In this document: in pieces, positions 1 to 63,795 of the stretch
Layout of the letters: the number at the start of each line of letters is the position of its first letter
How positions within the stretch are numbered: position 1 is the first letter of the stretch
Assembly (NCBI RefSeq): GCF_028641065.1
Contig: NC_073394.1
Coordinates: 14,012,001 to 14,076,000 of the forward strand
Direction of reading: 5' to 3'
From: Leucoraja erinacea
Lineage: Eukaryota
DNA length: 64,000 nt
Program-made: the position numbers and the translations under genes
Notes under the pieces: model-generated
What the model was told of the DNA's origin: nothing
The model's database searches: none
Seen by the model: only the letters and a program-made list of their open reading frames with translations

Positions 1-544
1 TTACTCGAGCACTTTGCGTCTTCTTTTACAAACTAATCTTAATGTAAGAATAAGGAATTGCAGATGCTAGTTTACAAAAAAGGATGCAAAGTGCTGGTAC
101 AACTCCACAGTTCAGGAAGCATCTCTGGTGGACATGGATAGGCAATGTTTTGGGACACTTCTTCAGACTGGTTTGAATAGGAGACATTTCGGGTCAGGAC
201 CGTTCAAAATGTATTTGTAAAATATTGTAAATATTCTTATTGTAAAATATCCTGAAATTCTTACACGCAGCTACTCTCTTATAATTGGTCTAAATGTGCT
301 CTTAATGTTAATAATCAGCACTTAGCAAACTAGATAGCTGAACAATATAGTTTTATTGTACTATCATTCCTTTGACATAAATATTTTGAAATGCCATGGA
401 TTTTGAATAATTATTTTAATCGGTCTTGTTTCTGATATGTCACGTTCTATTTCAATTATGTTCCAATTTATTTAGCGTGCTAGTATTCAAAATGTTAATT
501 ATAAAGATGCATTGGAAGCAGAGATAGATTACTGGACTGATAAA

Positions 545-1000
545 GACACAAAAAAAACAATGAAGTGCCAGAGTAAATCAACGTGTCTTTGGAGGACTTG
601 GATAGGTGATGTTTCAGATCAGGTCCCTTCTTCAGACTGGTTCTAAAAGAGGGAAGAAAAAAGAAGTGGGGGCAGGCCAAAGCCTGACATGTGATCAGTA
701 GTTACAGGTGAGGGGTGGTTTGATCTGCTATTCTAACAGATGGGTGAACAAAGACTAGAGATGAGGATCCAAAAGGATGTCAGGTAGGAGAGAAGAGGAG
801 TGAAATGTAAAGCCAGAAGGAGGGCTATGGGGAGGGCCAGATAGTGGGAGAAATGGGAGCACACCAGGGCTGAGCATTGGAGAGAGGTGGTAAAGAGGGG
901 TGGGTTGTTACTAAAATTGGAGAATTTAATGTTTATACCGTCGGGTTGTAAGCCACCCAAGCAGAATATAAGATTCTGTTCTTCCAATTTGCACATGGCC
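545..1000 (-). mobile_element. Penelope-like element 3' fragment (GIY-YIG C-terminus, 3' UTR, hammerhead-like terminal repeat)
   Basis: ORF 733..996 reads CKLEEQNLIFCLGGLQPDGINIKFSNF, matching the PLE endonuclease C-terminal pattern; downstream on the same strand is the ctgaagaaggg...gaaac repeat (610-635). Confidence 0.8.
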
Positions 1001-1009
1001 TCTCTCTTG

Positions 1010-1356
1010 TCTCTCCCCGTTGGATTGCAACCTTGTTGTGGTCGGGGAGCTTGTGTGTCTCAGTGACCTTTAGAGCTATGCCAGCGGGTGTCTCAGTGAC
1101 CCTTAGAGCTATGCCAGCGGGTGATTTGTCTCCTGTTAGGATCTCCGATGCTGGACAGGTCGAAGGGTAAAGGCGAGACGAAGAGCGATCCACTGGTCCT
1201 CCAGGTTGGAGGTTGAGCACAGGGCTCACAACCCTGTCTCGTAAAACAAATATGTTCCAGAAACAGCAATTGAAGTAATCAACACTGCTGAGTGGAGGAC
1301 CTTCGTTGCTGCTCTACATGCCAGGAGGCATAATAGGCAGTATGTAAGTAAGTAAG
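1010..1356 (+). mobile_element. Bipartite non-autonomous RTE-clade retroposon (RTE 5' UTR joined to RTE 3' end)
   Basis: 5' part ccttgttgtggtcggggagcttg...gagctatgcc...ggacaggtc...tccactgg resembles RTE/BovB 5' UTR; 3' part encodes WRTFVAALHARRHNRQ then (TAAG)n tail; approximate TSD tctctcttg 1001-1009 / tcactcttg 1357-1365. Confidence 0.7.
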
Positions 1357-1392
1357 TCACTCTTGCCTATGCCTCTTATCCCTATCATGGTC

Positions 1393-1660
1393 TAGACTTT
1401 AGACTTTAGAGATACAGAGTGGAAACAGGCCCTTCAGTCCACCAAGCCGGCACCGACCAGCGATCACGCCATGTATCAACACTGCCCTACTCTCTGGGGA
1501 CAATTTACAATTTTACCAAAGCCAATTAACCTACAAGCATCTTTAGGTGTGTGGGAGAAAACCGGAGCATCTGAAGAAAACCCACATGATCATAGGGAGA
1601 ACATGCAAACTCAATACAGACAGCACCTGTAGTCAGGTTCAAACCTGGGTCTCCGGCATA
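1393..1660 (-). mobile_element. tRNA-derived V-SINE (HE1-like), head truncated
   Basis: Reverse complement of V-domain core (gagtttgcatgttctccc...ggtttctcccacac) and (aagtct)n tail. Confidence 0.85.
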
Positions 1661-1923
1661 CTTTACTTTTGATTTTTTTTCCCCACAATTGTCTTGTCTT
1701 TGCAGTCTTTTTCTTTTCTCTGTCTTGTATAATTTATGTTTTGCGTGCTGTCTGAATCCGTCCCCGTGCCCTTCACTGTATTTCTGCAAATGACAATACA
1801 TTTGCTGATTGACTCGAATCATTTAGACAATCTCACTGCTGCTAGCTGCTACGCACCTTTGACCTGATGCCTGATAGCATCGGGCATCAGAAGTGGGTGG
1901 GGGGTGGGGGGGGGGATTCTCAC

Positions 1924-3390: not shown

Positions 3391-3433
3391 TAAGTCCAAT
3401 AAGGGCCAGATAGAAACCTCCAAAATTGCAAGA

Positions 3434-3560
3434 CTGAAGAAGGGTCTCAACCCGAAATCGAGTCTGATGAAGGGTCTCAATCCAAAACGTCACCCATTCC
3501 TTCTCTCCAGAGATGCTATCTGTTCCGCAGAGCTACTCCAGCTTTTTGTGTCTATCTATA
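3434..3560 (+). mobile_element. PLE-derived short element with two tandem hammerhead-like cores
   Basis: ctgaaga-agggtctcaaccc-gaaa at 3434 and ctgatga-agggtctcaatcc-aaaacgtc at 3464, followed by family body. Confidence 0.75.
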
Positions 3561-4620: not shown

Positions 4621-4875
4621 AAGAAATAGAAAATGTTTTAGAAGATAGACACAAAATGCCAGAGTAACTGAGCAGAAGAGGCAGTATCTCTGGAGAGAAG
4701 GAATGGGCGACGTTTTGGTTTGAGACCCTTCTTCAGATATTAAACTTGAATGTATTTTATATAATAACATAATTACCAAAGTGGTCATAGACGATAGTTA
4801 GCTGGTGTGGAACTTGCCAAATCTTGCCATTGGTTTCTCATTGATTGCAAATAGCATTTTTTTTTCTTTAGTAAT

Positions 4876-6510: not shown

Positions 6511-7865
6511 TTTTCTAATGCTAATTTTCTTTCTCAACACTATTTTCCCACCCTTTCCACATATCCCTTGACTTCTGTAGTATCCAGAAACCTATTGATC
6601 TCTTATGTGAATGCAATCAATGAATAAGCCACACAGTGTAGAGAATTCTGAAAATTCAGCATTTCTTGTGCGAAGAAATTTGTCTTAATTTCAGGTTTCA
6701 TTGATTGGCCTGAAGAAGGGTCTTGACCTGAAATGTCACGTATTCATGTTCTCCAAGGATACAGCATGGTAAAAAGCCTTACAGCCCAACTTGCCTATGC
6801 TAGCCAACATGTCCCATCTACACTAATCCCATCTGCCTGCATTTGGCCCATATCTCTCAAAACATATCCTATCCATGTACCTATTTAAATGTTCCTTAAA
6901 CTTTGTGATAGTACTTACTGAAGCCAAATATAATTGCCTTGAGATGGTGATGGTGTGCCTCCTTCTTGGACTACCTCTGTCTCTCTCGTGATGTTATTCC
7001 TATAGTGCTGTTGGGTATGAAGTTTCAACATTAGACAATTATTGCAACATTGAGGAGCATCAATATGATTTCAAATCAGGTTGGTGTGCAACTCGAAGGG
7101 GAGCCTGCAGGTGGCGGTGTTCCATTGCTTCTACTGATCTTGCCCCTGTTGGTGGTAGGGTTTGGTTGCAGCTGCCAGAAAGCCTTGGTGAGTAACTGCA
7201 GCATATTTTGAAGGTGGTAAATACTGCTGCCAAAGTGAGGGAGGAAATGAAAGCCTAATGAGGTCCACAGGATTCCATCAAGTGTGCGGCTTTATCTAGA
7301 ATTGTGTTGAACTTCTTGAGAGTTATTGAAGCTGCACTTAACCAACAAATGTCCTTCTGACTTGCACCAAGCTGAAAATACTTTCTTCAGACTGCTTTGT
7401 TTTGCATGTGGAAATAATTTCAGCTGGGCACAGAAGCAGACAGAAACAATGAGCCGGAACCCAGTCTGAATAAGGGTTGCAACCCGAAATGCACCTATTC
7501 CCTTTCTCCAAAGGTGCTGCCTGACCCATTGAGTTACTCCAACATTTTGTGTCTTATACATTTTGTGTACAAGCCAGCATTTGCAATTCCTTCCTATAAA
7601 TCCAATTATTTCAGCCAGAGATGAGTAAGAATTGATTGTGGCTTGCCATCTTATAGTAAATAAGCAGGTTAGATTCTTCTTGAAGAAGATACAAGCAGGT
7701 AATAGCAAGACCAGTATTCCTAGAGTTATTGACAGTCATCTAAGCCTTCATGGGAACACACCATTTACTTTGGTTGAAGAAGACACAGAATACTGGGGTC
7801 AAGCAATATCTCAGGAGAACATGGAAAGGTGATGTTTCAAGTTGGGACCTTTCTTCAGACTATTT

Positions 7866-9049: not shown

Positions 9050-9730
9050 TCATATAGTTATAAAGTGATACAGTGTGGAAACAGACTCTTCAGCCCAACT
9101 TGCCTGCACCGGCCAACATGTTCCAACTACACTAGTCCCACCTGCCTGCGTTTGGTCCATATCCCTCCAAACCTGTTCTATCCATGTACATGTCTAACAG
9201 TTTCTTAAATGTTGGGAGAGTTTCTACCTCAGCTACCTCCTCTGGCAGCTTGTTCCATACTCCACCACCCTTTGTTTGATAAAGTTACCCCTCAGATTCC
9301 TATTAAATCTTTTCCCCTTCACCTTAAACCTATATTCACCTACTCTGGGCAAGAGACTCTGTGCATCTATCCGATTTATTCCTCTCATAATTTTATACAC
9401 CTTAATAAGATCACCCCTCTATTCAAGGAATAGAGTCTCAGCCTACTCAACCTCTCCCTATAGCTCAGACCCTATAGCCCTGGCAACATCCTTGTAAATC
9501 TTCTCTGTACCCTTTCGAGCTTGACAACATCTTTCCTATAACATGGTGCTGAGAACTGAACACAATACTCTAAGTGTTTAAGAAGGAACTGCAGATGTTG
9601 GAAAATCAAAGGTACACAAAAAAGCTGGAGAAACTCAGCGGGTGCAGCAGCATCTATGGAGCGAAGGAAAAAGGCAACGTTTTGGGCCGAAACCCTTCTT
9701 CAGACAATACTCTAAGTGCAGCCTCACCTC
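9050..9730 (-). mobile_element. CR1 LINE 3' fragment (second subfamily) interrupted by PLE-derived element
   Basis: Reverse strand has [10 protein letters not shown] and RLYSLN-like motifs plus CR1 3' UTR. Confidence 0.8.
9577..9703 (-). mobile_element. PLE-derived short element with hammerhead-like core, 15-bp TSD
   Basis: TSD acaatactctaagtg at 9562-9576 and 9704-9718; core ctgaagaagggtttcggcccaaaacgtt on minus strand. Confidence 0.85.
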
Positions 9731-11180: not shown

Positions 11181-13202
11181 AGGTAGCGGCTCAACACTCT
11201 GTGCTCCTGTGCTGCCCAGGAGAATGAAGATGCTGGAATCTTGAGCATCAGTCTGATGAAGGGTCCCAATCTGAAACATTGTCTATCCCTTTCCTTTCAT
11301 AGATACTGCATTTTTTAGGTAACCGCTAACAACCCTCCACCTCCCCCCACCTTTCTCCCCCTTTCTTTCCCAACCCTTTGGGACATCCCTTTGGTAAAGC
11401 AGCCTTGCCCACAAGTCCTCAATCTTATTTTCTATATATTGGACAGGGACGTGAGAGGTCGTAGCCCCCTGTGCTTCAGTCTTACTTGCAGGCCACCCTA
11501 TCTACCACGTTTCTGGGCACAATGGAGGGTTTCCCTGGTGCTTCCTGGCACTATAGTCACTGTAAGTGCGATCCTCCATGAGGTCAGGATTTCCCTCCCT
11601 TCGGAGATTCCCTTACAGTCAGTAGATTGCAATAGCACTAATCCACTTAAATGGACTAGCAGCTTGTCGGTTACAGCACTGATTTGTGCTCTTTCTTTTA
11701 TCTGTAGAAGTTCAGTACTTTAATTTGATCCTGTCCTGTTGTGCTGCTTGCAATCATGCCGCCAATGTGCGGTGCATTTGTTTTAAATGTCAGTTGACAT
11801 TCCATGTTCCATTCCTTTAACTTCCCTCACATCCTAGATGTTTGGTGAATCTTAGCAATTATTCAACGCTCTATTGCCAAACGAGGAACAAAAGAATCCA
11901 GAGAAATATTTGATATGACAACCTCCCCCATTTAATCACCTCTTCTTCCCCAAACCTACCATTCCATAACTCACCTAGATTCTTGTTTTCAACTAGCACA
12001 TCCCTTTGCTCTTAGTGAATGTACCCAATAAAGCCATTTAATCTTTCAGCTGGTACTATGACCAGTCTATCCTCACAGAATGCTGTTGCCCATCAAGCGC
12101 AACTGTCTAATATAAAATAAGTCATCCTACCAGCAAATTTCACACACATTCATTTCCAATATAGATTGTTATATATATCCCACTCCAAAATAGCAAATCC
12201 CCCACAGTATAAATATAGCCATGTTGCAAAAGATGATCAGGCCCTTTGGTAACATCACTGGTCAAGCTTTCTGGCTGCAGTTTCTGAGGCATCTCTCCAC
12301 TGTATACTAAACTTAGCACATGAATCAGCACCCATATAGAAATTCTAGTGCTTCACCCATGGATGTTAGTTTACTAATGGAAGCTGCCATCTAGCTTGAC
12401 AGTTGCAGACAGGCTTACACGTCATTGACTTATTTTTTAGATAACATTAATTATATTTTCTCCATTATGTTCAGCTCCTTTAGCTGTTTCCTGAATGCAA
12501 AGCTTTTAAATTGAATTAATCGCTTTTCTTCAGAATTACTGCTTTCAAACTAGACATCATGTTTGTTGAATTGAGTCCCATATAATATGATAATCTGTGG
12601 CAGTGACTATGTCAAAAACTATTCATGCCTTCCAGAACCCAATCTATGACTAATGTCCAACTCACAGCTTTAGAAAGAACGGATGCAAAGTATAGCATTC
12701 TAATGAGTATGAACATTTCCCAATTTTAATTGTGCTGTCATATATTTTCTAACACAATGACGGAATTAGACTTTGTTGGCATTATTTAGCAGATGAGCTT
12801 TTAATTGAAAAATAATTATTCTTTCAAACTGATAGCTGATCAATCTAATTGATAATTCTACCAATTTCTAAATAGGTATATCTAACAATTCTTCAAGAAT
12901 ACTATTAATTACATGCTAAATGTTTGTATGCTTTATTTTCTATTGGGATTTATTGAGTGGGTGCAATTCTACATTTGTTTTCTATCTTTAGTTGACACCA
13001 GGATGTTCAAACCATTAAATACACTGTGACTCAACTAGTGATGGCTGAGTGCACTAACCTTTCCCTTTAATGCCAGCTGGAAGAGAGTATTCAACAACTT
13101 TTTGTAGGAGCCCCATCTAAAGCTTTCACATAAGATTAATTAAAAAAAACACATTATTGTTTGCATAACACTTTGCACAAACAGAGTTATTTCAGGTCTT
13201 TA

Positions 13203-15676: not shown

Positions 15677-16747
15677 ATATCAGCAGTGAAATTCTGTTCT
15701 TTTATGAGGTAAAGTGAATAGGAAGGGATTAAAATGGCAATGTTTATAAACATTTAGACAGGTTCATGGATGAGATAGGTTTATTGGGATAGGGGCCAAA
15801 CATAGGCAGGTGGGATGAGTTCGGCGCACACACACACACACTCACACATACATACAAGATATATATATTTGAAAATTGATCCCGACCCAAAACGTCACCT
15901 ATCCCTGTTCTCGAGATATGCTGCCTGACATGAGTTACTCCAACACTTTGTGTCTTCTTTTGTAAACCAGCATCTGCAGTTCCTTATTTTTTTATGATTA
16001 TACAATGATTATTATTCGCACATGAAAATAATAATTTGTTAATTTTTCAACTTTTTATGTACATGTCAGAGAAAGCAGAAAGAAACCAGTATCAGGGAAA
16101 ACTGATAGTAATGCTGTAATTCCAAAATGTTGAATTGAATTTTGCAATCCAAAGAAACATAGGTTAAATTATATGTAGACACAAAATGCTGGACTCGTGG
16201 GACTGATGAGTCTGAAGAAGGGTCTCAACCCGAAACATCACCCATTCCTTCTCTCCAGAGATGCTGCCTGTCCCGCTGAGTTACTCCAGCATTTTGTGTC
16301 TACCTCAGATTTAAATCAGCATCTGCAGTTCTTTCCTACACAATTGTTTAATTATGTTCTAGTTTTAATTGTTTACTGATGTTTGTCAATGCAACGAAAC
16401 AGAACAGTACACTTAAAAACTTTTTTTCTTGTTTATTTTACAATTCAAAAGAGACAGAGCAGCAATATATTGTTATTATGGTTCAATGATAAATGGCAGT
16501 AAGTCCAACGCTAACTCTTCCACACACAGCACCCATCGCTCACAGAAACATCAGCACAATAAATTGAATAAAATATACAGTGGCAGAAAAGGGCAAAAGT
16601 CCTTACTGCTACCCTTGGAGAAAAAAATCAATCCTACGTTGATTGAGTTTTCTCTGCAAACAGGTTCAAATTGCTTACAAATGAGGTTATTGTTGTTACC
16701 CTTAAACTCCCAGCTCTGCAACATGTCCTTTTTTTTTAAGAGAGTTT

Positions 16748-17138: not shown

Positions 17139-17346
17139 CAAAGATAGACCCAAAAAGCTGGAGTAACTCAGCGGGACAGTCAGTATCTCTGGACATAAGG
17201 AATGGGTGACGTTTTAGGGCGAGGCCTTCTCGACCCGAAACATCACCCATTCCTTCTCTCCAGAGATGCTGCCTGTCCCGCTGAGGTACTCCAGCTTTTT
17301 GGGTCTATCTTCAGTTTAAACCAGTATCTGCAGTTCCTTCCTACAC
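17139..17346. mobile_element. Palindromic (inverted dimer) PLE-derived element, 13-bp TSD
   Basis: Arms ~17141-17213 and ~17236-17311 are reverse complements; TSD aagcagatacaca at 17126-17138 and 17347-17359. Confidence 0.85.
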
Positions 17347-17727
17347 AAGCAGATACACATGTATTCTAGCTCAATGATTTTTACATAAATCATCCAATAT
17401 TCAGTCTCTGGCTTAACAGATATATGTACAGTCAGTCAGGGAGCTAGGTTGTCGAGCATGCAACACAAGCATTTCCTTCATAGCTTACCAAGTCTCTATT
17501 CATGGGCTCAATGTATAACTTATTCTTTGTTTCCTACATAGCTCTAGGGGCCAGAATTAACTTCAGGAACAGTGTGTTTTCCTGATTGACAAATTATTTT
17601 GCATAATTTGCTACAATTTAACTGGAGAATAATACATTTGCTGTGTGCTTGAAATATTGAAAGAACGACACATTTGTACCATGCAATTCATCGTATCCCG
17701 ATGCCCAAAGAGATTCATAGGTAATGG

Positions 17728-17855
17728 TAGGTAGACAAAAATCCTGGAGAAACTCAGCGGGTGAGGCAGCATCCATGGAGCGAAGGAATAGGCGACGTTT
17801 CGGGTCGAGCCTTCTTCAGACTGATGTGTCTAGCATTTTTTTCATATTCCTTTGC
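17728..17855 (-). mobile_element. PLE-derived short element, 14-bp TSD
   Basis: TSD ttcataggtaatgg at 17714-17727 and 17856-17869. Confidence 0.8.
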
Positions 17856-18252
17856 TTCATAGGTAATGGAGTACCTTTGAAAATCAGTCCGTTTTAATGT
17901 AAGATATTAGTTAATGATACCACAGTTTATACGAATTAGAATTCTTTGTCCTCATCACATTTCTAAGGTTATTACTACACCAAAGAAAATGTCAGGGAAT
18001 TGCACTTGGTTTGGATTTTAATATCCATTTCCAAAAACACCAATCCTTCAGCTCAGGTCATCTATCTTCTGCGTAACCTGACAGATGGCAATAAATTACG
18101 TTGTCATTTATGAGGAGAGATCATAACAAGTTGAACTGATGGACTTGAATCAGTAACAAAATGCCACCGTTTGCAGAGGGAGCATAATTTCCAATCTGTA
18201 TCCGGAAGCTTTTTCTTGGAGGCAAAGTCACTTGTACCTGTGAAATTAAAAT

Positions 18253-22576: not shown

Positions 22577-22762
22577 GAGGGACACTTTCCCTACTTATTT
22601 GCACATTACCACCAGACACTTCTATTAGAATCAACAGTGCATAATGTCATCCACCTGGGGGACAACCAGTTTGTGGATAACCCCGTAAAACAGCAAATGA
22701 GACCCTATGCGTCAGGCGTGAGCCTGAAAATCAATGATAAGGTGACTCAATAGATCAATGGT

Positions 22763-22894
22763 TGTATAGGAGGGAACTGCAGATGCTAGTTTAAACCGAG
22801 GATAGACACAAAAAGCTGGAGTAAGTCAGTGGGTCAGGCAGCATCTCTGGAGAAAAGGAATAGGCGACGTTTCGGGTCGAGACCCTTCTTCAGA
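22763..22894 (-). mobile_element. PLE-derived short element with intact hammerhead-like core
   Basis: 22866-22893 reverse complement = ctgaagaagggtctcgacccgaaacgtc. Confidence 0.85.
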
Positions 22895-23720
22895 TATGGC
22901 CATTCTGCGCACAGCTGGTTAATGATTCTCATAAGGATTTGTTTCCAGGTGACTTTGCTGGAGATAGAACCTCAGTCTTTTCAGCTGAAAGTAATGTCCC
23001 TTTCCATAACAGCAAGCACAGCTTCTCATTGATGGCATCCCATTGATTGCTGAGAGTCTCTCCAGGGGCCCACATGGAGTCTGAAATATAAAAATTATTT
23101 TGCCTAGCAATTGGCACCAAGTGTGCTTTGTGCTCGTGACTGCTTGTTTTGCTCAGTGTCTAAGATTCACTTCTGTTCATGCCTAGTTCTAGAAAGCAGA
23201 GATGAATTTCAATGCAATCCATTTTTGTACCAATTACGATAATTACTCTAATTTCTTATTGCATCTTCTTAACCATATGCCTCATATGTTAGTAAAGAGG
23301 ATTAGTGGGTGATTGTAGTCATCTAAATAATTGCTGCCAATACTACTTTGAGACCATCTGGAGCGGCAAGAATAAGCTGGAAAGCTTGTTGCTTCTCCTT
23401 ACTATCTCTTTTCGGTCACGTCATAGAGTCATCCAGCACGGAAATAAGCCCTTTGGTCTAATTTGCACATACCAACCAAAATATCTAGTCCCACCTGCTC
23501 ATGTTTGGCCCATATCCCTCTGAATCTTTCCTATCCATGTATCTGTCCAAATGCATTTTAAATGTCGTTATTGTACCTGCTTCAACTTCCTCTCACAAAA
23601 TATATGCAGGTTTCATGGATTTGGATCAATGAAAAGAGAAAGAAAAATTTGAAGAGGACAAACAACTACATTTAACATAGCAACATATGGGAAAATTATG
23701 AATAAAGAAACAAATCTTAC

Positions 23721-37937: not shown

Positions 37938-38017
<80 letters not shown>

Positions 38018-39289: not shown

Positions 39290-40575
39290 TGACGTCTACC
39301 ATAAACCGACAGACTCCCACAGTTATCTGGACTACACCTCCTCCTTTACAAAGATGCTATTCCCTACTCTCAATTTCTCTGCCTCCAAATGCTAACAATT
39401 TCAACTCCTTCCCATTTCCATCATCCCATCATCTGCTGCCAAGATGAGGCTTTCCATTCGAGGGCATTCCTAATGAACTCTTTCTTTTGTAAGCATGGTT
39501 CCCTCACCTGTGCCTACTCTGTGTCCCGCAGTTCTGTTCTTTTCCCCCTCTCCCAAGATGGAACTGGTTCTTGCCAATCACCGCAACAGACTCTGCATCC
39601 AAAACATCGTCGTTTCTACCACCCTCAATAAGATTTCACCACCAGCCACATTTTCCCATCATCACCAAGTGATGGTGCAGGTGCAGCTCCTTGGCTCACT
39701 CATCCCTTCCCGCCCAAGGCATTCCACCCTGGTACTCTCCCTTGCAACTGCAGGAGATGTATCATCTGCCCCTATACCTCCTACTGCGCTTCCACTAAAG
39801 GACTCAAGAATACCTTCCAGGTGAGACTGAGGATCTCGTGACCCCTCCTCTGACCACATCTACTGCATTCAGTTCTCCCACTGTGGGCTTCTTCACATCG
39901 ACGAGAGCAAGCGTAGACGAGGCAACAGTTTTGCCGAACATTTGTGCTCGGTCTACCAAGCCCTGCTGAATCTCCCGGTTGCTAACCTTTTTAACTCCTC
40001 TTCCCATTTCCATACTGACCTTTCTGTCCTGGGCCTCCTCCATTGCTAGAGAGAGCCCACGTGCAAACTGGATAAAATGCACCTCATATTGTGCATGGTT
40101 AGCCCGATGGTGTGAACATTGAATTCTCCAATTTTAGCTAAACAACCCCCTCCTCTCCACTTTTCTTTTTCGCCTTTCTTCTCTGTGCCCTACCTTCATG
40201 TGTCCCATTTCTCCGTTTCAACTTCCATCATCACCTTCCATCCACATTCCTTCCTTTGGCTTTTAACATTTCATGCTTCTTCTATCCTTATTTCACTCTT
40301 CTTGTGTTTTCATCTCTGGTCTCTGTTCAACTATCTGCCAATCAATACCCCTCCCCCATCACCCCACCCTCACCTGTATCCACCTATCACTTGCCTGGTT
40401 TTGAGCAGTCCCCACCTCCTTTCCAGCTTTCTCTCCCTACTACTATCGGTCTGAAGAAGGGTATCAACCTGAAACATCATCTATCCATATTCTCCAGAGA
40501 TACTGCCTGACCTGCTGAGTTATTCCAGCACTTTGTCTTTTTTTGGTAAACCAGCAGCTGCCAGCATCTCCTTGT
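39290..40575 (+). mobile_element. Degenerate Penelope-like element 3' half: RT C-terminus, GIY-YIG endonuclease, 3' UTR, terminal repeat
   Basis: DVYHKPTDSHSYLDYTSS, DAIPYSQFL, IYCIQFSHCGLLHIDESKRRRGNSFAEHLCSV, NIEFSNF; hammerhead-like core at 40451-40478 in the same sense. Confidence 0.88.
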
Positions 40576-46670: not shown

Positions 46671-47388
46671 ACTTTGAACATGAGCTTCAGGTGTCACTGT
46701 TACACATTTTCTTCTTTGTTACAGTGTTTAGAGAATATTATAATTATTATCAGGAAGTTATTTTCACACCAAGTTATACATGTTTCCTTGTATTATAGAC
46801 ACAAATAGCTGGAGCAACTCAGCGGGACAGGTAGCATTTCAGGAGAGAAGGAATGTTGCAGGGAGTACACCTAAAGGAGTGCCTTTAAAATAAGTTCATA
46901 AATTGTACATGGTTGGTGAGTCCATTCAAATGGCAGACTTATTCATTGAATTGTCTGGTGTAAAGGTGAGGATCCAATGACAGGTGTATTCAGATTGTGT
47001 TGTCCAGGAGTCGCTGCTCCACTGTTTATGCTCAATGGTGAGTCTAGCAATAGGCATCGGCACCTGTATTTATCATTGGTGAATGTAATGCTCCAGATTC
47101 AGCCTGGATGTTATATTGGGGATATTCTATTTGTGTGAAGGAGTATAATGCAGTAGCTCAAAAATACCTCCTTTGAAACGTAGGGGAACTCACAGTGGGA
47201 AATGAAAAATTGGATTTATTTCCAACTGATGAAGAGGAAATCACATGGCTAATTGAAATAAGGTAATATCTGAGGTCTAGATTTTATAATTTAAAGCATG
47301 AATTGAGACCAGATAATGAGAAAAAAAAGCTATTTAGAAGCTGAAATTCTGCTGCCTAATTAAAGAAAATTAATGATCACACTAACAC

Positions 47389-47931
47389 GGGCAGCCACAG
47401 TGGCACAAAGGTAGAGTTGCTGCATTACAGCACCTGCAGCCTCAGAGACCCTGGTTCGATCCCGACTACAGGTTCTGTCTGTATGGAGTTTGTACATTCT
47501 CCCCGTGACCGCGTGGCTTTTCTCCGAGATCTTCAGTTTCCTCCCACACTCCAAAGACGTACAGGCTTGTAGGTTAATTGACTTGGTATAAGTGTAAATT
47601 GTCCCTAGATAGACACAAAATGCTGAAGTAACAAAAAAAATGCGGGACAGGCAGCATCTCTGGATATAAGGAATGGGTGACGTTTTGGGTTGAGACCCTT
47701 TTTCAGATTGAGGAGACTGAAGGGTCTATCCAGAGATGCTGCCTGTCTTGCTGAGTTACTCCATCATTTTGTGTCAATCTTCAGTTGAAACCAGCATCTG
47801 TAGTTTCTTCCTACAACATGTAAATTGTCCCCAAGTGCGTAGGATAGTGTTTATATGCGGGAATCGCTGGTCGGTGTGGACTCGGTGGGCCTGTTTTGGC
47901 GAGATATCTCTAAACTAAAAACTAAACTAAA
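47389..47931 (+). mobile_element. V-SINE with nested palindromic PLE-derived element (47606-47818)
   Basis: TSD tgtaaattgtccc at 47593-47605 and 47819-47831. Confidence 0.88.
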
Positions 47932-49855
47932 CATTAAAGAAGGAAGATGGGAATGGATAGTATTTTACCTACCGGTACTTTTTTGATACATATATTTCCA
48001 AGGTATTTTATCTGAGAATTAAAGTGAAGGTGAATGGGAATGTTCGGAAGGCTTGAAGGAGAAAGAGCATTTAAAATTCAGATTTCAAAGAGATGAAAGT
48101 AAATAAAAACTTTACAGCTGCGCTGTTGGGTCATTTGAAACTTGAAACACTGAGAGGAAAACTGAGAATAAGATGTGAAGTACAAAGAATAATAGTGGAA
48201 TTTACTTCATAAATGTCAGGAGAAATAGATTCCAATGTGAGGTTTGAACTTCACGTCAGTGTCACTTTTAGATTTCAAACGGGAAGAAAATACATAAATT
48301 ATGGTTTTGTGTTTGTTTTTATTTCTGAAAGAATGAAGGGCGTGAGTGCCTACTATTGCAGGACTATGGAGATGTGTGAATAATGCAGGTGTGTAGAAAG
48401 CCAATGTTATGAAAAAGAGTGAGGTCCCATTGAACAGGCAGCAGCAGTGATGTAAATATAAACTGCAGTCGAAGCACTGAACCAAACTACTGCAGCATTG
48501 GCAGAAGAATAAGAATTTTGAATTAATTGGCTGATATCCCTATTCTGCAACTCCTGAAGGTGTTTGCATTTTCTGTAACTAACTTTTATATCTTGAAAAA
48601 TTCTTCAAAAATGCACAGGAGATTTTTTTGCATAAAGTCGGATATCCACAAATCAGGTTTCCCACAACCCATGGCGATCGTGTACTTGAAAATTCCTCCT
48701 AGTTAGCAGTTTTGGTTCTTACATACAGCATGTTGTTATTATCGTAATGTTAGCTTGAAGCTCCATTCATTCCATCTGTGTTGAGTTTGCTCAAGTTGCC
48801 ATTCAGATAACAATGGGATAGTTGCAATAACTGGCATACTATATGGACACATATAGAGTCACACAGCGTGGAAACAGGCCCTTCGGCCAAACTTGCCCAC
48901 ACAAACCAACATGTCACATCTAAGGTAGACAAATGCTGGAGGAACTCAACGGGTGCAGCAGCATCTATGGAGCAAAGGAAATGGGCAACGTTTCGGGCTG
49001 AAACCCTTCTTCAGACTGATGTGAGGGTGGGGGAGGCGGGAGGAAGAGGAGCCAGAGGGCTGAGGGAGAGCTCTACACTAGTCCCACTTTATATTGCACT
49101 ATAAAAGATTATTCAATTTTCTTGAACAGGCTGATGAAGTTGTTGTACAAAGTCAGCTCGATAAGGAAACTGGTGTAACCTGACAAAGTTGATGTATATC
49201 ATTTGATGAATGATGTGCTTTTTGCTAATTATCATTCAATTATAAATAAATTTATCTCACAGATTGAGGATTTTCACTGCAGGCAGAATTCAGAGATTTT
49301 CTTTTTTCCCTTCATATACTCTAATTAAGCATCATAAGCATTGTCATGTAACATAAGCCATCTCTGTGATATAGAAGATTGCATCCCACCTTTTAATGTA
49401 ATTTTGTAGTCTGTAGCTTCTAATATCCGTGGGCAGCAAGAACAAGTAAACAGCATGTGAAAATGAATGGTGAGCTCCTAAAATTGATTCCTCCCACAAA
49501 GCTTAAAATGGTCATGGAATAAGCTCCAGGCGATCTTTTACTGGTGTGCCTAACTACATAGGAGAACCCAACCGCAGAATATTAAAACAGAGCAATTTAA
49601 GCATCATTACCTAAGCAAAGTACAATGGAAAGTAATGATATTTGAACAGCAATGGACAGCGACCAACTGCATCTTTATCCACTCACGATTGCTGAATGCT
49701 TAATTGCTCATTCCCACATGTAAATAAGATCATCAAGTGTACCAGCGAGAGAAGAAACATTTTCTCAACAAGAACTGAGAGGTGAAAGCAACAATTAGCA
49801 TTAAGATAAACAATGCAAATTAAGTGGTGAGCATGTTTTTACTTATTTTTCTTTT

Positions 49856-51935: not shown

Positions 51936-52729
51936 CCTTTGGATTCTTGGTCCCGTCGACCGCTGAGCCTTCCAGGCGGGGAGATTAAGTGTTTAAATGC
52001 ACAAGGCAGATACCTTTGATACACCAGTGAAAATCAGCTTGAGGATTTTCAATCAATTGTAATGATAGTTATCATTATAATACAGGATATAAAAACAATA
52101 AGAACAATCACACAAATTGGAGGCATCTATTCCTATTCAGGACGAATATCAAAAAATATTATGGCAATGGATTTAATGTTGGGGGTTATCCAAGGGCTAT
52201 AGAACTATGTGGAAGTAGCAGCCATGAACTCAAAACAAGGACGGGTCTACAGAATATTTGTTCTAATGTACATTGACAGCAATCATCAGTTTGAAATTAA
52301 AAGGACAGCTTTGTAAACAGACAGAGCTGTCTACTAAGACAATTGAATACGTGAATTGAGCTTCCATCAAACCAGAAATCTTCAGCCTGAAGAAGGATCC
52401 TGACTCAAAATATCACCTCTTCATCTCCTCCTGAGCTACTGCCTGATCCCTCCAGCACTTTTTTTTTTTTTTTTTTTTTAGTAAACCAACATCTGCAGTT
52501 TCTTACGTTTCAATCTTCAGCTTCAATTATTTTGCACCATTGTGATAGAAATGAAGGAAGCTTCCTGACCAGATATATTTATTAGAGACAATGATGCTGG
52601 GTTACAAATAAAGACACAAAATGCTGGAGCATCTCTGGAGAACATGGATAGGTACCATTTCAGGAAGGGACCCTTCTTCAGATTTATTTGTTAATTGGCA
52701 CATGAAATATGGCCATAGGGATATGAGGA

Positions 52730-53522: not shown

Positions 53523-55023
53523 TATGTAGACACAAGAGACTCGATTTACTTGGTGTTTAAAGATTCTACCAAGTGGGTTCCAAGAAAATGCTTGTTTCCC
53601 TTGACGAATAAAGACTTTTATATCAACCAGCTTCAACCTCCGAGTGACTTCAGTTCAAAAGGTCACAACACGCAGAAAATTGAGTTTTGTCTCATTCGGC
53701 ATTTGGCAGATTCAGTTTTCCTACTGTAATACTGATTGATGGGCAATGATTTGCCTAAGCAGAAGACAAATGTGTGTCCTTTGCTATTTGCAGATCATTT
53801 CTTCTATTACTCTCAGAAACAATTACATTTACACAATAAATTCTGGCTATCGTCTATCATGCAGTTGTTAACTTAGAATGAAAGTGACAAATCTATAGTC
53901 AACTACTAATAGCACATTCTAGAATAATAACCATAATATCTTATTAATGGTATAATAGCAAGGCGTCTATATATGCAATTTATTTGTTTCTCATAAAAAT
54001 TTATATATATTAAACGTTTGACCTATTTATTTTAAACTCTTTTGACTCAATTTGTTGACATAGCAGGGGAATTAAATGCTAAGTAGACACAATGCTGGAG
54101 CAATTCAGCGGGACAGGCAGCATCTCTGGAGAGAAGGAATGAGTGGCGTTTCGGGTTGAGGCCCTTCTTCTGACCAATAGAAGCTTGCAGGCATGTTCTT
54201 CTCCAATATGGCAAAGCAGTGTTGACCCTATTACTTCAAGACGGTATCAACTGAGAAACCGGTCAAGAACAGAGTTTTAGTAATATATAGATATGTAGAC
54301 ACAAGAGACTCGATTTACTTGGTGTTTAAAGATTCTACCAAGTGGGTTCCAAGAAAATGCTTGTTTCCCTTGACGAATAAAGACTTTTATATCAACCAGC
54401 TTCAACCTCCGAGTGACTTCAGTTCAAAAGGTCACCACACGCAGAAAATTGAGTTTTGTCTCATTCGGCATTTGGCAGATTCAGTTTTCCTACTGTAATA
54501 CTGATTGATGGGCAATGATTTGCCTAAGCAGAAGACAAATGTGTGTCCTTTGCTATTTGCAGATCATTTCTTCTATTACTCTCAGAAACAATTACATTTA
54601 CACAATAAATTCTGGCTATCGTCTATCATGCAGTTGTTAACTTAGAATGAAAGTGACAGATCTATAGTCAACTACTAATAGCACATTCTAGAATAATAAC
54701 CATAATATCTTATTAATGGTATAATAGCAAGGCGTCTATATATGCAATTTATTTGTTTCTCATAAAAATTTATATATATTAAACTTTTGACCTATTTATT
54801 TTAAACTCTTTTGACTCAATTTGTTGACATAGCAGGGGAATTAAATGCTAAGTAGACACAATGCTGGAGCAATTCAGCGGGACAGGCAGCATCTCTGGAG
54901 AGAAGGAATGAGTGGCGTTTCGGGTTGAGGCCCTTCTTCTGACCAATAGAAGCTTGCAGGCATGTTCTTCTCCAATATGGCAAAGCAGTGTTGACCCTAT
55001 TACTTCAAGACGGTATCAACTGA
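53486..55023. repeat. 769-bp tandem direct duplication
   Basis: Copy 1 53486-54254, copy 2 54255-55023; three substitutions noticed by eye. Confidence 0.95.
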
Positions 55024-56312: not shown

Positions 56313-56768
56313 TTAAAATGTCCCAACAAAAATGAAGAAAAGTACATGCCAAAGTCATAGAAAATGAGTTCACATCACAAGGGAATGCTGCTGTATTGCA
56401 TTTGGTAATGTGTCAATAAAATGATGCTGCGCAAACCAGCACTAAACCAGTCTGAAGAAGGGTTCCGACCTGAAACATCACCTGTCCCTTTTTTCCAAAG
56501 ATGCTGCCTGACCTTATTAAGTTACTCCAGCAATTTGTGTCTCTCTAATGTCACTTAAGCCATCAAGCGCTTATCGGTAAATCTAGGGAATTTTTAAAGG
56601 CCAATTGATAAATGGTTATCTGCTCACCACACCTTGTACTCTGGTGATGGACTACACTATGTACTGCAGATTTCATGCTCAACAATGTCTCTGCAAAATA
56701 TCTTCTATCCTATCTGCGCTTAGGAGTAAAAGTGGCATTTATTTTGGACTGCATGGAAACACTGGCAT

Positions 56769-56988
56769 GTGTAGGAAGGAGCTGTAGATGCTGGTTTAAA
56801 CCGAACATAGACACAAAAAGCTGGAGAAACTCAGCAGGACATGCAGCATCTTTGGTAAGAAGGAATGGGTGATGTTTTGGATCGAGACCCTGAGGAAGGG
56901 TCTAGACCCGAAATATCACCCATTCCTTCTCTTCAGAGATGCTGCTTGTCCCGCTGAATTACTCCAGCATTTTGTGTCTATCTTCAGA
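56769..56988. mobile_element. Palindromic PLE-derived element, 12-bp TSD
   Basis: TSD aaacactggcat at 56757-56768 and 56989-57000. Confidence 0.85.
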
Positions 56989-57037
56989 AAACACTGGCAT
57001 ATCCAATCTAACGATTTAAAGCAACTACAACAGATAT

Positions 57038-59019: not shown

Positions 59020-60300
59020 ACCAGTAGGTAGGATGGTTAAATCGATACACAGCATGTTTGCCTTCATTGGTTGAATTGTTGAGTATAAAAATTGGGATGA
59101 TGGACACAAAATGCTGAAGTAACTCAGCGGGTCAGGCAGCAGCTCTGGAGAAAAGGAACAGGTGACGTTTCGGGTGGGAACTCTCCTTCAGACTCGGTAT
59201 AGATGCTGCCTGACCCATGAATTACGGCAGCATTTTGTGTCTATCTTCAGTATAAACCAGCATCTGATGTCCCTTGCTGCACATAAAAGTCGGGAAGCCT
59301 TGTCGAAGTTGTAGAAAGCTTTCTTTAGGCCACCTTTGGATAATTGTGTGCAGTTCTGGTCCCTGCATTACAGAAAAAAGGTGGAAGCTATGGGGAAGAT
59401 GCAGAAGTTACTAAGATATTGCCGGGATTAGAAAACATTCGCTTTCTGGAGAGGTCAGACAAACTTTTATTGCTTCCTCATCAGAGGCTAATGGGGAAAC
59501 TTGATAAAAAAATATATAAATTAGTGAGATGCATAAACAGTGTCAATAATCAGGGTCGTTTTCCCAGGGTGGAAATGTCAAATATAGAGGTGAAAGGGGA
59601 ATTGTTTCAAGGAGAATTACAAAGCAAGTTTTTTTCATAGAAAATCATCAATGCCTGGTGCATGCTGCTGGGGGAAATGGTGAAAACCTAATAAGAAGAC
59701 ACCATGTAAGAGGCATTTGTGCAGACATGTGAACAGGAAGATATAGACCATGTGCAGGCAGATGAGTAATTTAAATCGGCATGAAGGTCAACACCCACAG
59801 ACACCGAAGGGCTTGTTCCTTAGCTGTAATGTTCGATGTGCTTTGTACACGTATAAACGAATGAATGGAGACGGAGAAATTTTGTGATACTTTTGCCGAT
59901 GATTTTACCGGGAAATGTCCTAGTAAACAGAACAAGTGTTGTGTTCTTGTGCGAAAGCACCAGTCTACCTATTAGTAATCTTCAGAGATTATCTTCATTC
60001 TTTTATCACGTCCTATCTTTAGTAGATACTAATGAGGTCACTGGAAATGAGCATGAGGGAAAGCCAGGGGCATAAGAATTGAACACAAAAAAAATAGACA
60101 AATTCCCTTTCTCTAAAATTATTGCATGCACCTTTCATGATTTTAATAGTGATGGATAGTGGATATATATAGATGTACTCTTTGGTTTCAGAAAGTCATC
60201 AGACTGGGATGTTCTATTAAGGCTTTCCTCACCGGCATGGATTTTTAATCTGAGAGTGGGTCTTCCTATTGTCACGGCTAACGAGGCTCATTCTCATTAC

Positions 60301-60466
60301 CTTCAGCAGTTCTTTATACAGAAACGGGTGACACGTGGGAAAGGTTGTTAGAAGTATGCTGCAGTCCATAATGGAGGCACAAATATGTACTGTATGCAGC
60401 TTTGGTATATTTAAAGGCAGTGATGATCTCCAAACACACCGTTCTAAATCATCCAACAAAGAATAA
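60301..60466 (-). CDS. Candidate coding exon of unknown host gene
   Basis: ttctctgtatctAG acceptor, AAG|GTAATG donor, single open frame YSLLDDLERCVWRSSLPLNIPKLH...HPFLYKELLK. Confidence 0.28.
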
Positions 60467-61189
60467 CTAGATACAGAGAATTAATTGATTAGGTGGATGC
60501 ATGAAATCTTTCCCTTTTATATGGCTGTAGCCTATGAAATATTAATTCATCACCAGAATATGAAAGTTGACCCATCCTTGTTTCAAGAATGGAAAAACGC
60601 AGATTTACAAATGCAAACATTTGATCTTATGATTGTGTGAGTTTAACAGTGATACAATCTGAATCTTGTTTTCATGCTACTTTAGACTGGCTGATAGAAG
60701 AAACAAGGAACTGCAGATGTTGGTTTACTCGTGATGTGCCTCAGGTGTCAGTGCTGGGCCCATTTCTGTTTGTGGTTTATATCAATGATTTGATACAATG
60801 AAAAAATACCAGGCATGATACATAAGTTTGCAGATGGCATGAAAGTGGGTGGCATCGTAGAGCGCGTGAAAGGTTATCAAAAACTGAAGCAGGATCTTGA
60901 TCAGGTGGACTGAGGTATGGTTAATGAAGTTTTGGATTGAGCTGGAAAGTGAACGAACGCAGGGACAGAAAAAAATGAATCTGAATCTGAAATGCTGGAG
61001 TAACACGCAGATCAGGCAGCAAATTTGGAGAACATGGATAGGTGACATTTCGGGCTGGGATCTTTCTTCCGGCTGATTCTTCAGATTTATCCCCTCTATA
61101 TGTGTGTCTTCTTTTATAGACCGTCTGAAACCTTGGCTTTTCTACGGGTTTTTTTTGTCCCATCAACAGTATCCAAAACTGTATACCTC

Positions 61190-61485
61190 TGTTGAAGGGG
61201 AATGGCCATAGGGGTCAGATGCACATTCTGCCTACTGCCCTTCTTAGTGGCCATCCACCTACTCTCTTACTAGAACTTAGGCATGATCACCTCACTATAA
61301 ATCTTATTCAAGAAGTCCTCCTTTTTTCCCGATGACCCTTATGCCATCCAGTTGCAGCTCCAATTCCCTAATGTGGTCTGTGCAGAGCTGAATCTGGACA
61401 CAATTACTGTAGGTTTAGTCATCAGGGATACAGACAGTTCCCCTGACTTCCCAATATGTTGCAGGAAGAGCATTGCACCATTCTA
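61190..61485 (-). mobile_element. Degenerate CR1 ORF1 N-terminal zinc finger / leucine zipper fragment
   Basis: Minus strand VQCSSC...PDD...CVQIQLCTDHIRELELQLD. Confidence 0.65.
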
Positions 61486-62104
61486 CCTGCCATCACTACT
61501 GCACTGAAACAAGAAACACAAAGCACCAGAAGCACACACAACAAGTATAACAGACTTTATATTTACCTCCGACCCCATCTCCTCAGACTCCCTGCTGAAG
61601 GCACATTTGCCCTCTGCATAGCCTCTCTCCCACCATGGCTGCTCCATATAGGTCACTCCGCTACACCATGCCTTTTTATTCGCTTGATCCAACCAATCCA
61701 ATCCGTCTCCCACTCCGGCCTAACATTAATGATGGTTGCCGTGGACTTCATGATCCAAAGGACCTGTTTCCAAGCTGTATGTCTAAACTAAACTAATATT
61801 CCTGTTTTGATGTTGCTTTATCCCCTTTGCTGGTCGATATCTATACCTCTGGCATTTTCATTCTTTCTTGCTCTGCCAATGTTTGCTATCTTCAAACGAT
61901 GAAACAATGAGGGAAAGAGATGGTAGTGAAGATTTCCTTTCAATCAAAACAAGAATAAAACCATTCATCAGCTACTCTTGGAGATTATTTAATCAAAAAG
62001 CTAAAATGTTTCACAGGAAAAATTACCTCGTGAAATACAATCTTGCAATTGTCAGAAAAAAACGTAATTTTTGGCTGCATGTTTTGCTCCTCAATGTGGT
62101 TTCA

Positions 62105-62445
62105 TCAGTAGTAGTGGGAGAAATGGGATGGGGGAAGGGATGGAAAGAGAAAGCAAGGGCTACCTGAAGTTAGAGAAGTCAATGTTCATGCCGCTGGGGT
62201 GGAAGCTACCCAAGTGAAATATGAGGTACTGTTCCTCCAATTTGTGCCTGGCCTCACTCTGACAATGGAGGAGGTCCAGGACAGAAAGGTCAGATTGGGA
62301 ATGGGAGGGGGAGTTCAAGTGCTGGGCCACCGGGAGATCAGTTTGGTTAATGCAGACTGAGCGGAGGTGTTCAGCGAAACGATCGCCGAGCCTGTGCTTG
62401 ATCTCGCTGATGTAGCGAAGTTGACACCTGGAACAGCAGATGCAC
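62105..62445 (-). mobile_element. Penelope GIY-YIG C-terminal fragment
   Basis: Minus strand ISEIKHRLGDRFAEHLRSV...DLPVAQHLNSPSHSQSDLSVL...KLEEQYLIFHLGSFHPSGMNIDFSNF. Confidence 0.88.
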
Positions 62446-63795
62446 TTGGAAACACACTCTGAAAGCTACAGCTGTTAGTTGACTACCACTGAACTCCATA
62501 TGTTGTGCAATCTAGCATTGCACTCAAGAATCTCCTCAGATTCAGTGTCAATCCAAGGCCATGTTAATTTTAATGGAGTTTGTAGGACAAGGATTTAGAA
62601 GAAAAGGATGGTCAGCTGTCTTCTTCTTCAAAAAAAAATAGTTTAAAAGAGAAAAAAAACCCAAACGATTTTTAATTATGTCAGAGACATCTCTAAGGTC
62701 TAAAAATCATTGACAGCAGACTAAGGCCCATCCTTTGTTATCCTCCGTCCAAGGGCTATCGGAGCTATTTTAAGTGTAGGAAGGAACTGCAGATGCTGGT
62801 TCAAACCAAAGATAGATGCAAAAAGCTGGAGTAATTCAATGGAACAGGCAGCATCTCTGGAGAAAAGGAATAGGTGATGATTTGGGTCAAGACCCTTTTT
62901 CAGACTGTGAGGCGGGGAGAGGGAAATGATAGATAAAGGATTTGGAGAGTTAGTGAGATGGAATCTCTGCATTCTTCCAAGGCCATGGCAGTGATTCTGG
63001 TGATGGAGTAATTCAATGAACGTCAACCTGGTGTCTCTGCAGCAGTTGATGGAGAGGTGCTCAAGCAGCACTGTAACAATTTAAAGAAAAGTAATAGACA
63101 ACCAAGGATGAAAGTTAAGATGGGTATTGGTCGGGCGAAGGAGGATTCAATAATGCTTGGCAGCTGAGAGCAGAGTTATACATCAGATGGTTCAATCATG
63201 AGCTTCAAACAGAAGCAGCTTCTCCTCAAAATAATAGGTTGGAGAGGGAAAGTTGTGAAGGGAGATTTTTAATCTCAGCAATTCTGAACTTTTTATATGG
63301 CTTATTCATCATTTAAATGAAATGTTTACATAATTTGCATGCAATAGTGTTGTGTAATTCAGACTTTGGTGAGGTAAAACAGTAGTTTTAACTTGGAGAG
63401 TGAATGCCTTACAATATGAGTAGTCTTCCTGTCAGCCAGAATTGGACAATTAGTACTTCATAGCGTAGCCAGACTGTGTACTCATGTGGGTCATAAAGCA
63501 CTAGTTAACTGTTGTCCCCGGTGCCCTATCATTCCATCACCTAGTTCAAACAAGTGGAGGGAAATGTTAAAGAAAATGCACATGGGAAGCACCTCTGTGT
63601 CTTGCTACACTAAAACTAGTGTTTTGTTACATTTGAACTCCCTAGTGCTAACGTGTGCAAATTCTCAGCGGGCTATGCGAATGGCAGAAGCTGGACCAAG
63701 GTAAACGTGTTCCATCTAAATCTACTGTCAAGCTTATTACTATTTGTATTCTACTTCCACTCACATTGGAATCCTATTCAGTTTAAAGGGAATGA

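Follow-up and report, generated by a model that had tools for sequence, protein, structure and literature searches.

Minimal hammerhead ribozymes (min-HHRs) occur as thousands of single copies in vertebrate genomes, with about 4,000 in coelacanth and 9,000 in Xenopus, and Cervera & de la Pena 2014 (PMC4209133) interpreted these copies as truncated Penelope-like elements (PLEs). As described there, the min-HHRs had no activity as monomers and low activity as dimers. No chondrichthyan example was found in the parts of that paper and the supplement file that were searched. Here, we describe a dense repeat family in a 64,000-nucleotide (nt) stretch of the Leucoraja erinacea genome (contig NC_073394.1, positions 14,012,001 to 14,076,000 of the forward strand), which we refer to as the window and number from its first letter. 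The members of this family are very probably terminal fragments of a PLE that carry a genuine min-HHR motif, and they extend the known association between min-HHRs and PLE ends, in the form of scattered truncated single copies, to a skate-like genome.

Inverted 5' copies, a 30- to 40-bp tail at one end, and target-site duplications are the described pattern of PLE insertions (Craig 2021, PMC8557442; Arkhipova 2013, PMC3846280), and a CX2-5CxxC linker is given as the mark of Neptune and Nematis elements (Craig 2021, PMC8557442). According to Frangieh 2024 (PMC11167929), the protein of an anole PLE initiates synthesis on both strands, using two positions inside the RNA that mark the borders of the tail, and PLE promoters have been placed within the pseudo-long terminal repeat (pLTR) (Schostak 2008). 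Retrozymes, which are defined as at least two consecutive tandem units with a complete hammerhead (10.64898/2026.07.22.740005; PMC7229834), were reported together with PLEs in one chondrichthyan by Li, Clavereau & Pollet 2026 (10.64898/2026.07.22.740005). Our literature search, which had Repbase and Dfam outside its scope, returned no report of a 5'-end peak at the ribozyme and no account of this family in skates, although the supplements of Li 2026 may list it.

Results

A dense repeat family carries a minimal hammerhead motif

A profile built from copies in the window was used to search for repeat arms at a main cut-off of E<0.01 and a looser cut-off of E<1, with the reversed window as a control. 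The search returned 44 arms at the main cut-off and 48 at the looser one, and the reversed control returned none. The arms represented about 33 insertion sites, or 1 per 2 kb, which agreed with the original prediction (made from the letters of the window alone) of 30 to 35 copies at about that density. They occupied about 6% of the window, with a median identity of 85% to the consensus. Single arms were about 95 to 140 bp long and head-to-head pairs about 160 to 235 bp, and there was a mild strand skew (28 minus and 16 plus). A pattern for the hammerhead core alone gave 25 matches at three or fewer mismatches, compared to 0 in each of 100 shuffled windows. Viral contigs contained no match to the repeat.

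The consensus contained the core C3-U4-G5-A6-N7-G8-A9, G12-A13-A14-A15.1, and U16.1-H17, with a majority at every column. An A was inserted between A9 and G10.1 in 24 of 24 copies. Stem II was closed by a G10.1-C11.1 pair, comprised 4 bp in the consensus, and kept three or four pairs in 23 of 24 copies; its inner pair varied on both sides across families. An ACGU palindrome replaced helix III, and its C was kept in 19 of 24 copies and its G in 14, the losses being CpG transitions. Thus, the minimal core, the extra nucleotide between A9 and G10.1, and the palindromic 15.2/16.2 positions that had been predicted were all found, but the predicted palindromic stem III was not, because A15.1-C-G-U16.1 lacks a loop and hence forms no stem III. 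Rfam gave no match at the gathering score over the whole window and no hammerhead match at E≤10 in 28400-28650. Weak rows for psbJ, mir-3718, and SNORD65 were rejected, as they were far below gathering and reflected an inverted-arm hairpin.

Three copies that had been singled out as the best preserved (28505-28532 on the plus strand and 22866-22893 and 36692-36719 on the minus strand) fit the predicted motif exactly. The first of these is the best-preserved minimal hammerhead (28501..28536); it has a 4-bp stem II, the ACGU palindrome, and a 4-bp stem I formed by its junction with an inverted arm. The entire insertion (28414..28613) consists of a tailed minus-strand arm (28427-28501) placed head-to-head with a tailless plus-strand arm (28502-28600), and it is bounded by a 16-bp target-site duplication (28414-28429 and 28598-28613). 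The second (22762..22895) is a single tailed copy with an intact core, a 1-bp stem I, and a 5' end at about C3-1. The third (36625..36722) is a single tailless copy with an intact core and no stem I, and a 14-bp duplication sets its 5' end at C3-3..0. The only copy besides 28505(+) with all elements was a second-subfamily copy on the minus strand (48915..49070; core 48987-49014), which had a 2-bp stem I and about 55 nt of upstream pyrimidine-rich 3' untranslated region (UTR). In the case of the tailed second-subfamily copy at 9575..9705 on the minus strand, the GGGU-UUCG-GCCC stem II predicted at 9676-9703 was present, but the core was dead because G12 was replaced by A; a 15-bp duplication set the 5' end of this copy at C3-2..0.

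Metagenome contigs were scanned with the core pattern, which yielded at least 120 loci. The results that follow are for the matches listed. PLE protein matches were found at 21 of 120 loci. Among the 121 motifs with full flanks, which formed 26 clusters, pair 2.1-1.1, left free by the search pattern, was conserved in every cluster and occurred as three pair types (shuffle mean, 13.6); pair 2.2-1.2 was kept in 21 of 26, pair 2.3-1.3 in 19 of 26, and pair 2.4-1.4 in 9 of 26, which was the chance level. Position 17 was never G (121 of 121 motifs). An alignment of 26 rows (4 window copies and 22 metagenome loci) had a covariation score of 0.458, compared to 0.149 when shuffled; 0 of 500 shuffles reached it, and slid controls were at most 0.172. 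Stem I covariation across unrelated PLE families suggests selection on the source motif. Non-CpG core cells in the window were off consensus in 9 of 269 cases compared to 124 of 756 downstream, a contrast that is inflated by the way copies were picked, and this low divergence fits selection on source elements. Two further observations were made here. The metagenome loci are host-animal DNA inside a prokaryote-oriented collection, and many otherwise unrelated PLE ends among them (L001-L120) share the same short core letter for letter. An ATG-led frame of about 15 to 17 codons follows the motif in several subfamilies (C3+49 to C3+100; e.g., 16261-16312) and stops near the tailless 3' end; no protein was found that starts with it.

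The repeat is continuous with PLE coding remnants

A tblastn search with skate and ray PLE proteins matched four broken open reading frame (ORF) remnants, at 39282-40129(+), 62163-62462(-), 913-1008(-), and 24070-24199(-). Two long copies, 40451(+) and 635(-), continued from a GIY-YIG remnant via the 3' UTR into the repeat, with the motif, as had been predicted, in sense orientation and downstream; the distances were about 310 nt and 275 nt, respectively. Their 3' UTRs were pyrimidine-rich and 66% alike over 385 nt. Because two ORF remnants run through related 3' UTRs into the repeat, we conclude that the repeat is a PLE 3' end.

The longer of the two is a broken PLE copy on the plus strand (39282..40572) with a reverse transcriptase (RT) C-terminus, a Cys linker, a GIY-YIG domain (39846-40103), a pyrimidine-rich 3' UTR, a decayed hammerhead (40451-40478), and a tail. 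Its coding remnant (39282-40129) spans the RT C-terminus to GIY-YIG, with a CNCRRCIIC-type linker at 39.7 kb. The other (537..1017, minus strand) comprises a GIY-YIG C-terminus (913-1008), a 3' UTR, and a decayed hammerhead (608-635). A small remnant of PLE RT lies at 24070..24238 on the minus strand, and the GIY-YIG remnant at 62163..62462 on the minus strand is without a hammerhead end. The latter frame (62163-62465) had 7 protein matches, the best being from Leucoraja erinacea (74% identity) and Hypanus sabinus, which points to a cartilaginous fish, most likely a skate, and the matched proteins contained a PLE RT C-terminus, a Cys linker, and GIY-YIG. Longer relatives were RT plus GIY-YIG proteins of 650 to 1000 aa with RVT_1 and GIY-YIG domains, and a Cys linker (CX2-5CxxC) preceded GIY-YIG in 43 of the 57 relatives tested. 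Pfam returned no PLE family for the 4 window PLE pieces, so PLE identity rests on tblastn, and the window held neither a full-length nor a tandem ORF-bearing PLE copy. The source element appears to be a Neptune-type PLE, an assignment made by the linker motif and not by a tree with named references. It was also noted that the PLE stop codon at 62160-62166(-) overlaps a splice-donor-like CAG/GTAG.

Insertion anatomy is that of a PLE

The 3' ends of the arms fell at about C3+97 in 18 of 44 cases and at about C3+133 in another 18; the remaining 8 were shortened. Head-to-head pairs were present at 7 sites, and a tail of about 35 nt was on exactly one arm in all 7. Target-site duplication scores of at least 9 were obtained for 10 of 33 sites but only 6 of 300 random intervals. 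The continuity with PLE sequence, the duplications, the head-to-head arms, and the one-sided tail indicate that the copies are very probably PLE terminal fragments and not a separate short interspersed element (SINE) or a retrozyme array, and they support the predicted mobilization by a PLE. The original label of "SINE-like" was apt for the uniform 100- or 135-nt length but not for the origin of the repeat, given its continuity with a PLE 3' UTR and ORF, its PLE tails, and its inverted arms. No RNA polymerase III (Pol III) head was detected (0 tRNA genes and 0 Rfam matches in the window), and the 5' ends were the ribozyme itself or PLE 3' UTR. The label "retrozyme-like" was not supported in the window, where no two consecutive complete units were found; tail-to-core joints elsewhere in the genome are no more than a hint.

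Besides the insertion at 28414, the head-to-head pairs were as follows. Three had a tailless minus-strand arm and a tailed plus-strand arm: 17139..17348, in which both arms begin inside the core (13-bp duplication), 47603..47817 (15-bp duplication), and 59096..59283. At 56768..57003, a tailed minus-strand arm faces a tailless plus-strand arm (14-bp duplication). At 16161..16343, a short tailless minus-strand arm precedes a near-consensus tailed plus-strand arm, and at 25128..25288, both arms begin in stem II and the tail is on the plus-strand arm.

Three window sites carried partial tandems that were shorter than the tail-to-C3 form described below. A plus-strand partial tandem (3432..3560) consists of a core stub (3434) and a second copy (3464, G12 to A), both incomplete; within 3432-3491, the stub ends near the predicted cleavage site and the second copy follows directly, although this is a single case with an ambiguous alignment. 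Two decayed arms form a partial tandem at 50..205 on the minus strand, and a decayed minus-strand copy at 60990..61086 follows a 9-nt core stub. At 17725..17860 on the minus strand, a tailless copy with a 2-nt deletion in stem II is preceded by two short inverted scraps inside one 14-bp duplication (17725-17869), which amounts to repeated template switching in a single insertion.

The 5' ends cluster just upstream of the ribozyme

The 5' ends of the 44 arms, which were assigned by hand, were distributed unevenly: 23 fell at C3-10..0, 15 further 3', 0 at -11..-50, and 6 far upstream. The ends at C3-10..0 lie about 30 nt before the predicted cut site. When only the 29 arms whose ends were fixed by a duplication, junction, or continuation were considered, 14 fell at -10..0, 9 further 3', 0 at -11..-50, and 6 were long, which corresponds to a stopping rate 26-fold higher within those 11 nt (a ratio that is inflated, since very short fragments are under-detected). 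The commonest single 5' end was -1, directly after AG (8 of 44). Only 1 of 44 arms started near the predicted cut site (46788..46855, minus strand), beginning 3 nt past it. Since this was the sole such arm and most copies had the whole core, the templates were uncleaved RNA. Copying from cleaved RNA was rejected, as only that one arm starts near C17+1. Stalling at stem II was rejected as the cause of the main peak, because such ends would fall 3' of the stem, where 10 of 44 lay (+1..+21).

Contigs of one DNA run and three presumed RNA runs were aligned to 36500-37500; such contigs show neither starts, ends, strand, nor level. The 173,449 aligned DNA contigs mean "very many" only, as summed depth is not copy number. 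Loose ends piled up most at C3 in both copies (2941 and 996 contigs); five letters matched the consensus and agreement then fell to 0.35, a pattern that fits either true ends or subfamily differences. Among the joints listed, the best supported were same-strand joints between the tail end and C3, seen in 246 DNA contigs and 13 presumed-RNA contigs; opposite-strand joints had 38 DNA contigs over three rows. In another animal's DNA, metagenome locus L032 (785-935) contained a head-to-tail dimer of a hammerhead unit of about 69 nt, inside one 13-bp duplication and with both cores intact.

Most copies are decayed

Integrity was scored in 24 gap-free copies; a segmental duplicate and three copies with insertions or deletions were excluded. 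The core was kept in 13 of 24 copies, the core plus stem II and palindrome in 6, and all of these plus a stem I of at least 2 bp in 2. The two fully intact copies, 28505(+) and 49014(-), lie on opposite strands 20 kb apart. G12 was lost in 8 of 27 cases, like other CpG positions (43 of 133). Inverted pairs folded as long hairpins. An exon scan, together with Pfam on 142 of 343 candidate frames, gave no host gene above the cut-off. The window copies are thus very probably neutral relics. The prediction that intronic transcripts could contain many latent sites of dimer-dependent cleavage is unsupported, because only 2 of 24 copies are intact and these are 20 kb apart on opposite strands; no host exon was identified in these scans.

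Remaining copies and other features of the window

Several of the remaining copies extended upstream or retained a tail. A minus-strand copy with about 370 nt of upstream 3' UTR and a poly-C run (37800..38300) had an intact core without stem I. Tailed minus-strand copies with about 135 nt (37140..37405, G12 to A) and about 60 nt (62773..62965, broken core) of upstream 3' UTR were also present. Plus-strand tailed copies were found at 52384..52504 (old; a 12-bp duplication sets its 5' end at C3-4..0), 7463..7600 (broken core), and 15877..15985 (core decayed or cut). Tailless copies were found at 4639..4738 (minus strand, G12 to A) and 56449..56545 (plus strand).

The others were shorter or more damaged. 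On the plus strand, there were short copies at 6708..6767 and, with a small inverted arm, at 11250..11310. On the minus strand, there were a copy without most of the core (36808..36883), a weak old fragment detected by the profile search (38347..38398), and a copy with an internal deletion (52593..52683). A minus-strand copy with a broken core (54071..54174) was duplicated at 54840..54943; copy and flanks are identical and 769 nt apart, which may reflect a recent local duplication or an assembly artifact, and the two were treated as one copy when integrity and ends were tallied. CR1 3' ends adjoined the 5' side of two minus-strand PLE copies in the same orientation (7775-7990 and 36218-36520): the copy at 7775..7861 and an old copy at 36218..36313, which has the CR1 3' end in place of its 5' part.

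The remaining window sequence was CR1-type long interspersed element (LINE) and other repeats. At 41805-45277(-) lay a near-complete CR1-type LINE, in which APE endonuclease and RT fall within an open stretch of 774 aa and the preceding frame has a GDSL/esterase domain. Another CR1 was at 20419-21980(-), and a 344-N assembly gap (about 58170-58510) lay inside a GC-rich repeat.

Discussion

Taken together, the whole pattern is probably best explained by 3'-terminal (pLTR) fragments of Neptune-type PLEs, each with a minimal hammerhead that is predicted to cut solely as a dimer and is mostly broken; run-off may account for their 5' ends, and the copies have since decayed neutrally. Under the anole PLE model, the PLE protein would nick both DNA strands and start reverse transcription at two internal RNA sites about 35 nt apart, and these two start sites would produce the 3' ends at about C3+97 and C3+133 and the rule of one tail per pair. 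Uncleaved RNA served as the template. The transcript may start at C3-10..0, where the initiator-like TCAGTCT fits the initiator consensus. Priming in the upstream repeat would then run off at the RNA 5' end after 100 to 135 nt and leave a SINE-sized "solo pLTR," while priming in the downstream repeat would leave a small number of long copies with random truncation. The tail-to-ribozyme tandems could come from a template jump once run-off has occurred. After insertion, copies decay neutrally, CpG sites first, and the ribozyme would serve the source element and not the host, through weak, dimer- or protein-assisted cleavage. A copied cap adds an extra G, as in L1; a G preceded 3 of 3 junction-fixed arms starting at -3, where long copies have mostly C, although these are too few to prove the point. 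For us, the case that run-off at the transcript start causes the fixed 5' end is evenly balanced. We consider it possible, but tentative, that skate PLEs mass-produce fixed-length solo pLTRs by 5'-repeat priming and run-off, and that jumps yield cleavage-competent dimers with hammerheads about 135 nt apart that seed retrozymes.

Several points weigh against parts of this explanation. With regard to the ribozyme, most copies were first chosen by the core pattern, which inflates core conservation, and the window showed no two-sided compensatory change. The metagenome loci had their core fixed by the search pattern and formed clusters that are not all independent, so that test supports stem I and not core conservation. 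The stem I of the window family's consensus is only 2 bp, and when 4 copies were folded, a cleavage-competent dimer was never the lowest-energy dimer. With regard to the 5' ends, subfamilies differ upstream and could create false ends for the 15 arms without a fixing junction; an automatic measure of upstream extent failed to separate real ends from subfamily differences, because the long copies belong to different subfamilies. The ends are spread from -10 to 0, more than one start site would give. Of the copies in two metagenome families, no more than 6 of 44 and 4 of 28 end within 10 nt, so the peak is not general and is particular to this genome or to the way copies were gathered. Finally, the tail-to-C3 joints have sides of 19 to 30 nt with the intervening letters undefined, and no such tandem was found among the 33 window sites.

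The most serious alternative for the fixed 5' end is a roadblock, in which a retained intron has its 3' splice site at the CAG that follows the pyrimidine tract, and bound splicing factors or the C/U tract itself halt reverse transcription. With the donor-like CAG/GTAG at the PLE stop codon and the AG before the ribozyme, the 3' UTR might be intronic. In 6 of 6 long copies, pyrimidines make up 80 to 93% of the 40 nt that precede the motif, AG is at -3/-2 in 5 of these 6, and the commonest 5' end comes right after it. There is also a precedent in the D. virilis intron described as ending at helix I (Cervera 2014, PMC4209133; Schostak 2008). On the other hand, none of the 6 arms that pass the point stops within the following 40 nt of tract, and arms ending at -1 have no common upstream exon. 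The presumed-RNA joints listed include no spliced joint into the site, although a donor may lie outside the stretch, and the two large metagenome families lack AG at this position. We regard a roadblock as rather doubtful.

It is unlikely that the motif is a vestige in this lineage, retained in source elements for protein binding or a promoter role after cleavage was lost. The 2-bp stem I, the absent stem III, the more stable competing folds, and the origin of window copies from uncleaved RNA would all suit a vestige, as would the report that in vitro transposition of the anole PLE survives ribozyme mutation and that no RNA-seq ends lie at the cut site (PMC11167929). But no part varies less across subfamilies than the core and stem II, helix I of D. 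virilis is likewise given as 2 bp (PMC4209133), and the anole motif is reported to cut in the presence of its protein (PMC11167929).

A separate non-autonomous SINE or retrozyme, in which a short ribozyme-bearing master RNA excises itself and is copied by PLE proteins, would account for the uniform 100- or 135-nt units with a sharp 5' edge, for upstream extension in just 6 of 44 arms, and for the tail-to-ribozyme joints in genome contigs; pLTR-derived retrozymes have been reported, including in one chondrichthyan (10.64898/2026.07.22.740005). This origin is nevertheless improbable. A cleaved monomer would begin at C17+1, where a single arm does; the window has no tandem array or pair of complete units and no Pol III head was found; long, ORF-linked members exist, and each of several subfamilies has long members joined to PLE 3' UTR; and the hammerhead is minimal where that of retrozymes is canonical. 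Lastly, regulation of host pre-mRNA by dispersed copies acting as latent cleavage sites is very improbable, since copy density, plentiful repeat-bearing contigs in the three presumed RNA runs (2537 to 3697 contigs), and the strand skew would agree with it, but the two intact copies are far apart on opposite strands, the loss of G12 keeps pace with that of other CpG positions, many arms are tied up in long hairpins with an inverted partner, and the frames scanned identified no host gene.

If the tentative reading of solo pLTRs that give rise to dimers is true, hundreds of thousands of genomic copies would document a stepwise route from PLE to retrozyme. If the fixed 5' end marks where transcription begins and the joints are real dimers, then the copies preserve a trace of how reverse transcription of PLEs terminates and jumps, an open step of mobilization, and would test the 2026 proposal of pLTR-derived retrozymes. 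The family is also of value for repeat annotation, with the caution that motif counts overstate active ribozymes, as the 2 of 24 intact copies indicate.

Among the systems described in the cited texts, animal non-LTR retrozymes (PMC7229834; 10.64898/2026.07.22.740005) resemble the window repeats in being short and non-coding and in having a type I hammerhead and a kinship with PLE pLTRs. In retrozymes, tandemly arrayed units each contain a complete hammerhead, mostly of the canonical kind, and give circular RNA, whereas the window has dispersed monomers and inverted pairs with minimal, mostly broken cores. The PLE min-HHRs (PMC4209133) are closer: they share the absence of loop III, the palindromic 15.2/16.2 positions, the extra nucleotide between 9 and 10.1, the G10.1-C11.1 pair, and the pLTR position. 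The window differs from them in its short stem II (4 bp), its 2-bp stem I (like the D. virilis variant), and its density of 1 site per 2 kb. With Anolis Poseidon PAc (PMC11167929), the window element would share two RT start sites inside the RNA at the borders of the tail, priming of both strands, an uncleaved RNA template, and a ribozyme at the pLTR-ORF junction; PAc belongs to a different clade, and the window element is known from sequence alone, with an ORF start that is not placeable at the ribozyme. The Neptune EN+ PLEs (PMC8557442, PMC3846280) share the RT, Cys linker, C-terminal GIY-YIG, and heavy 5' truncation, together with the inverted 5' copy, the 30- to 40-bp one-sided tail, and the target-site duplications. 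In contrast to these elements, the 5' truncation in the window is non-random and peaks at the 5' edge of the ribozyme.

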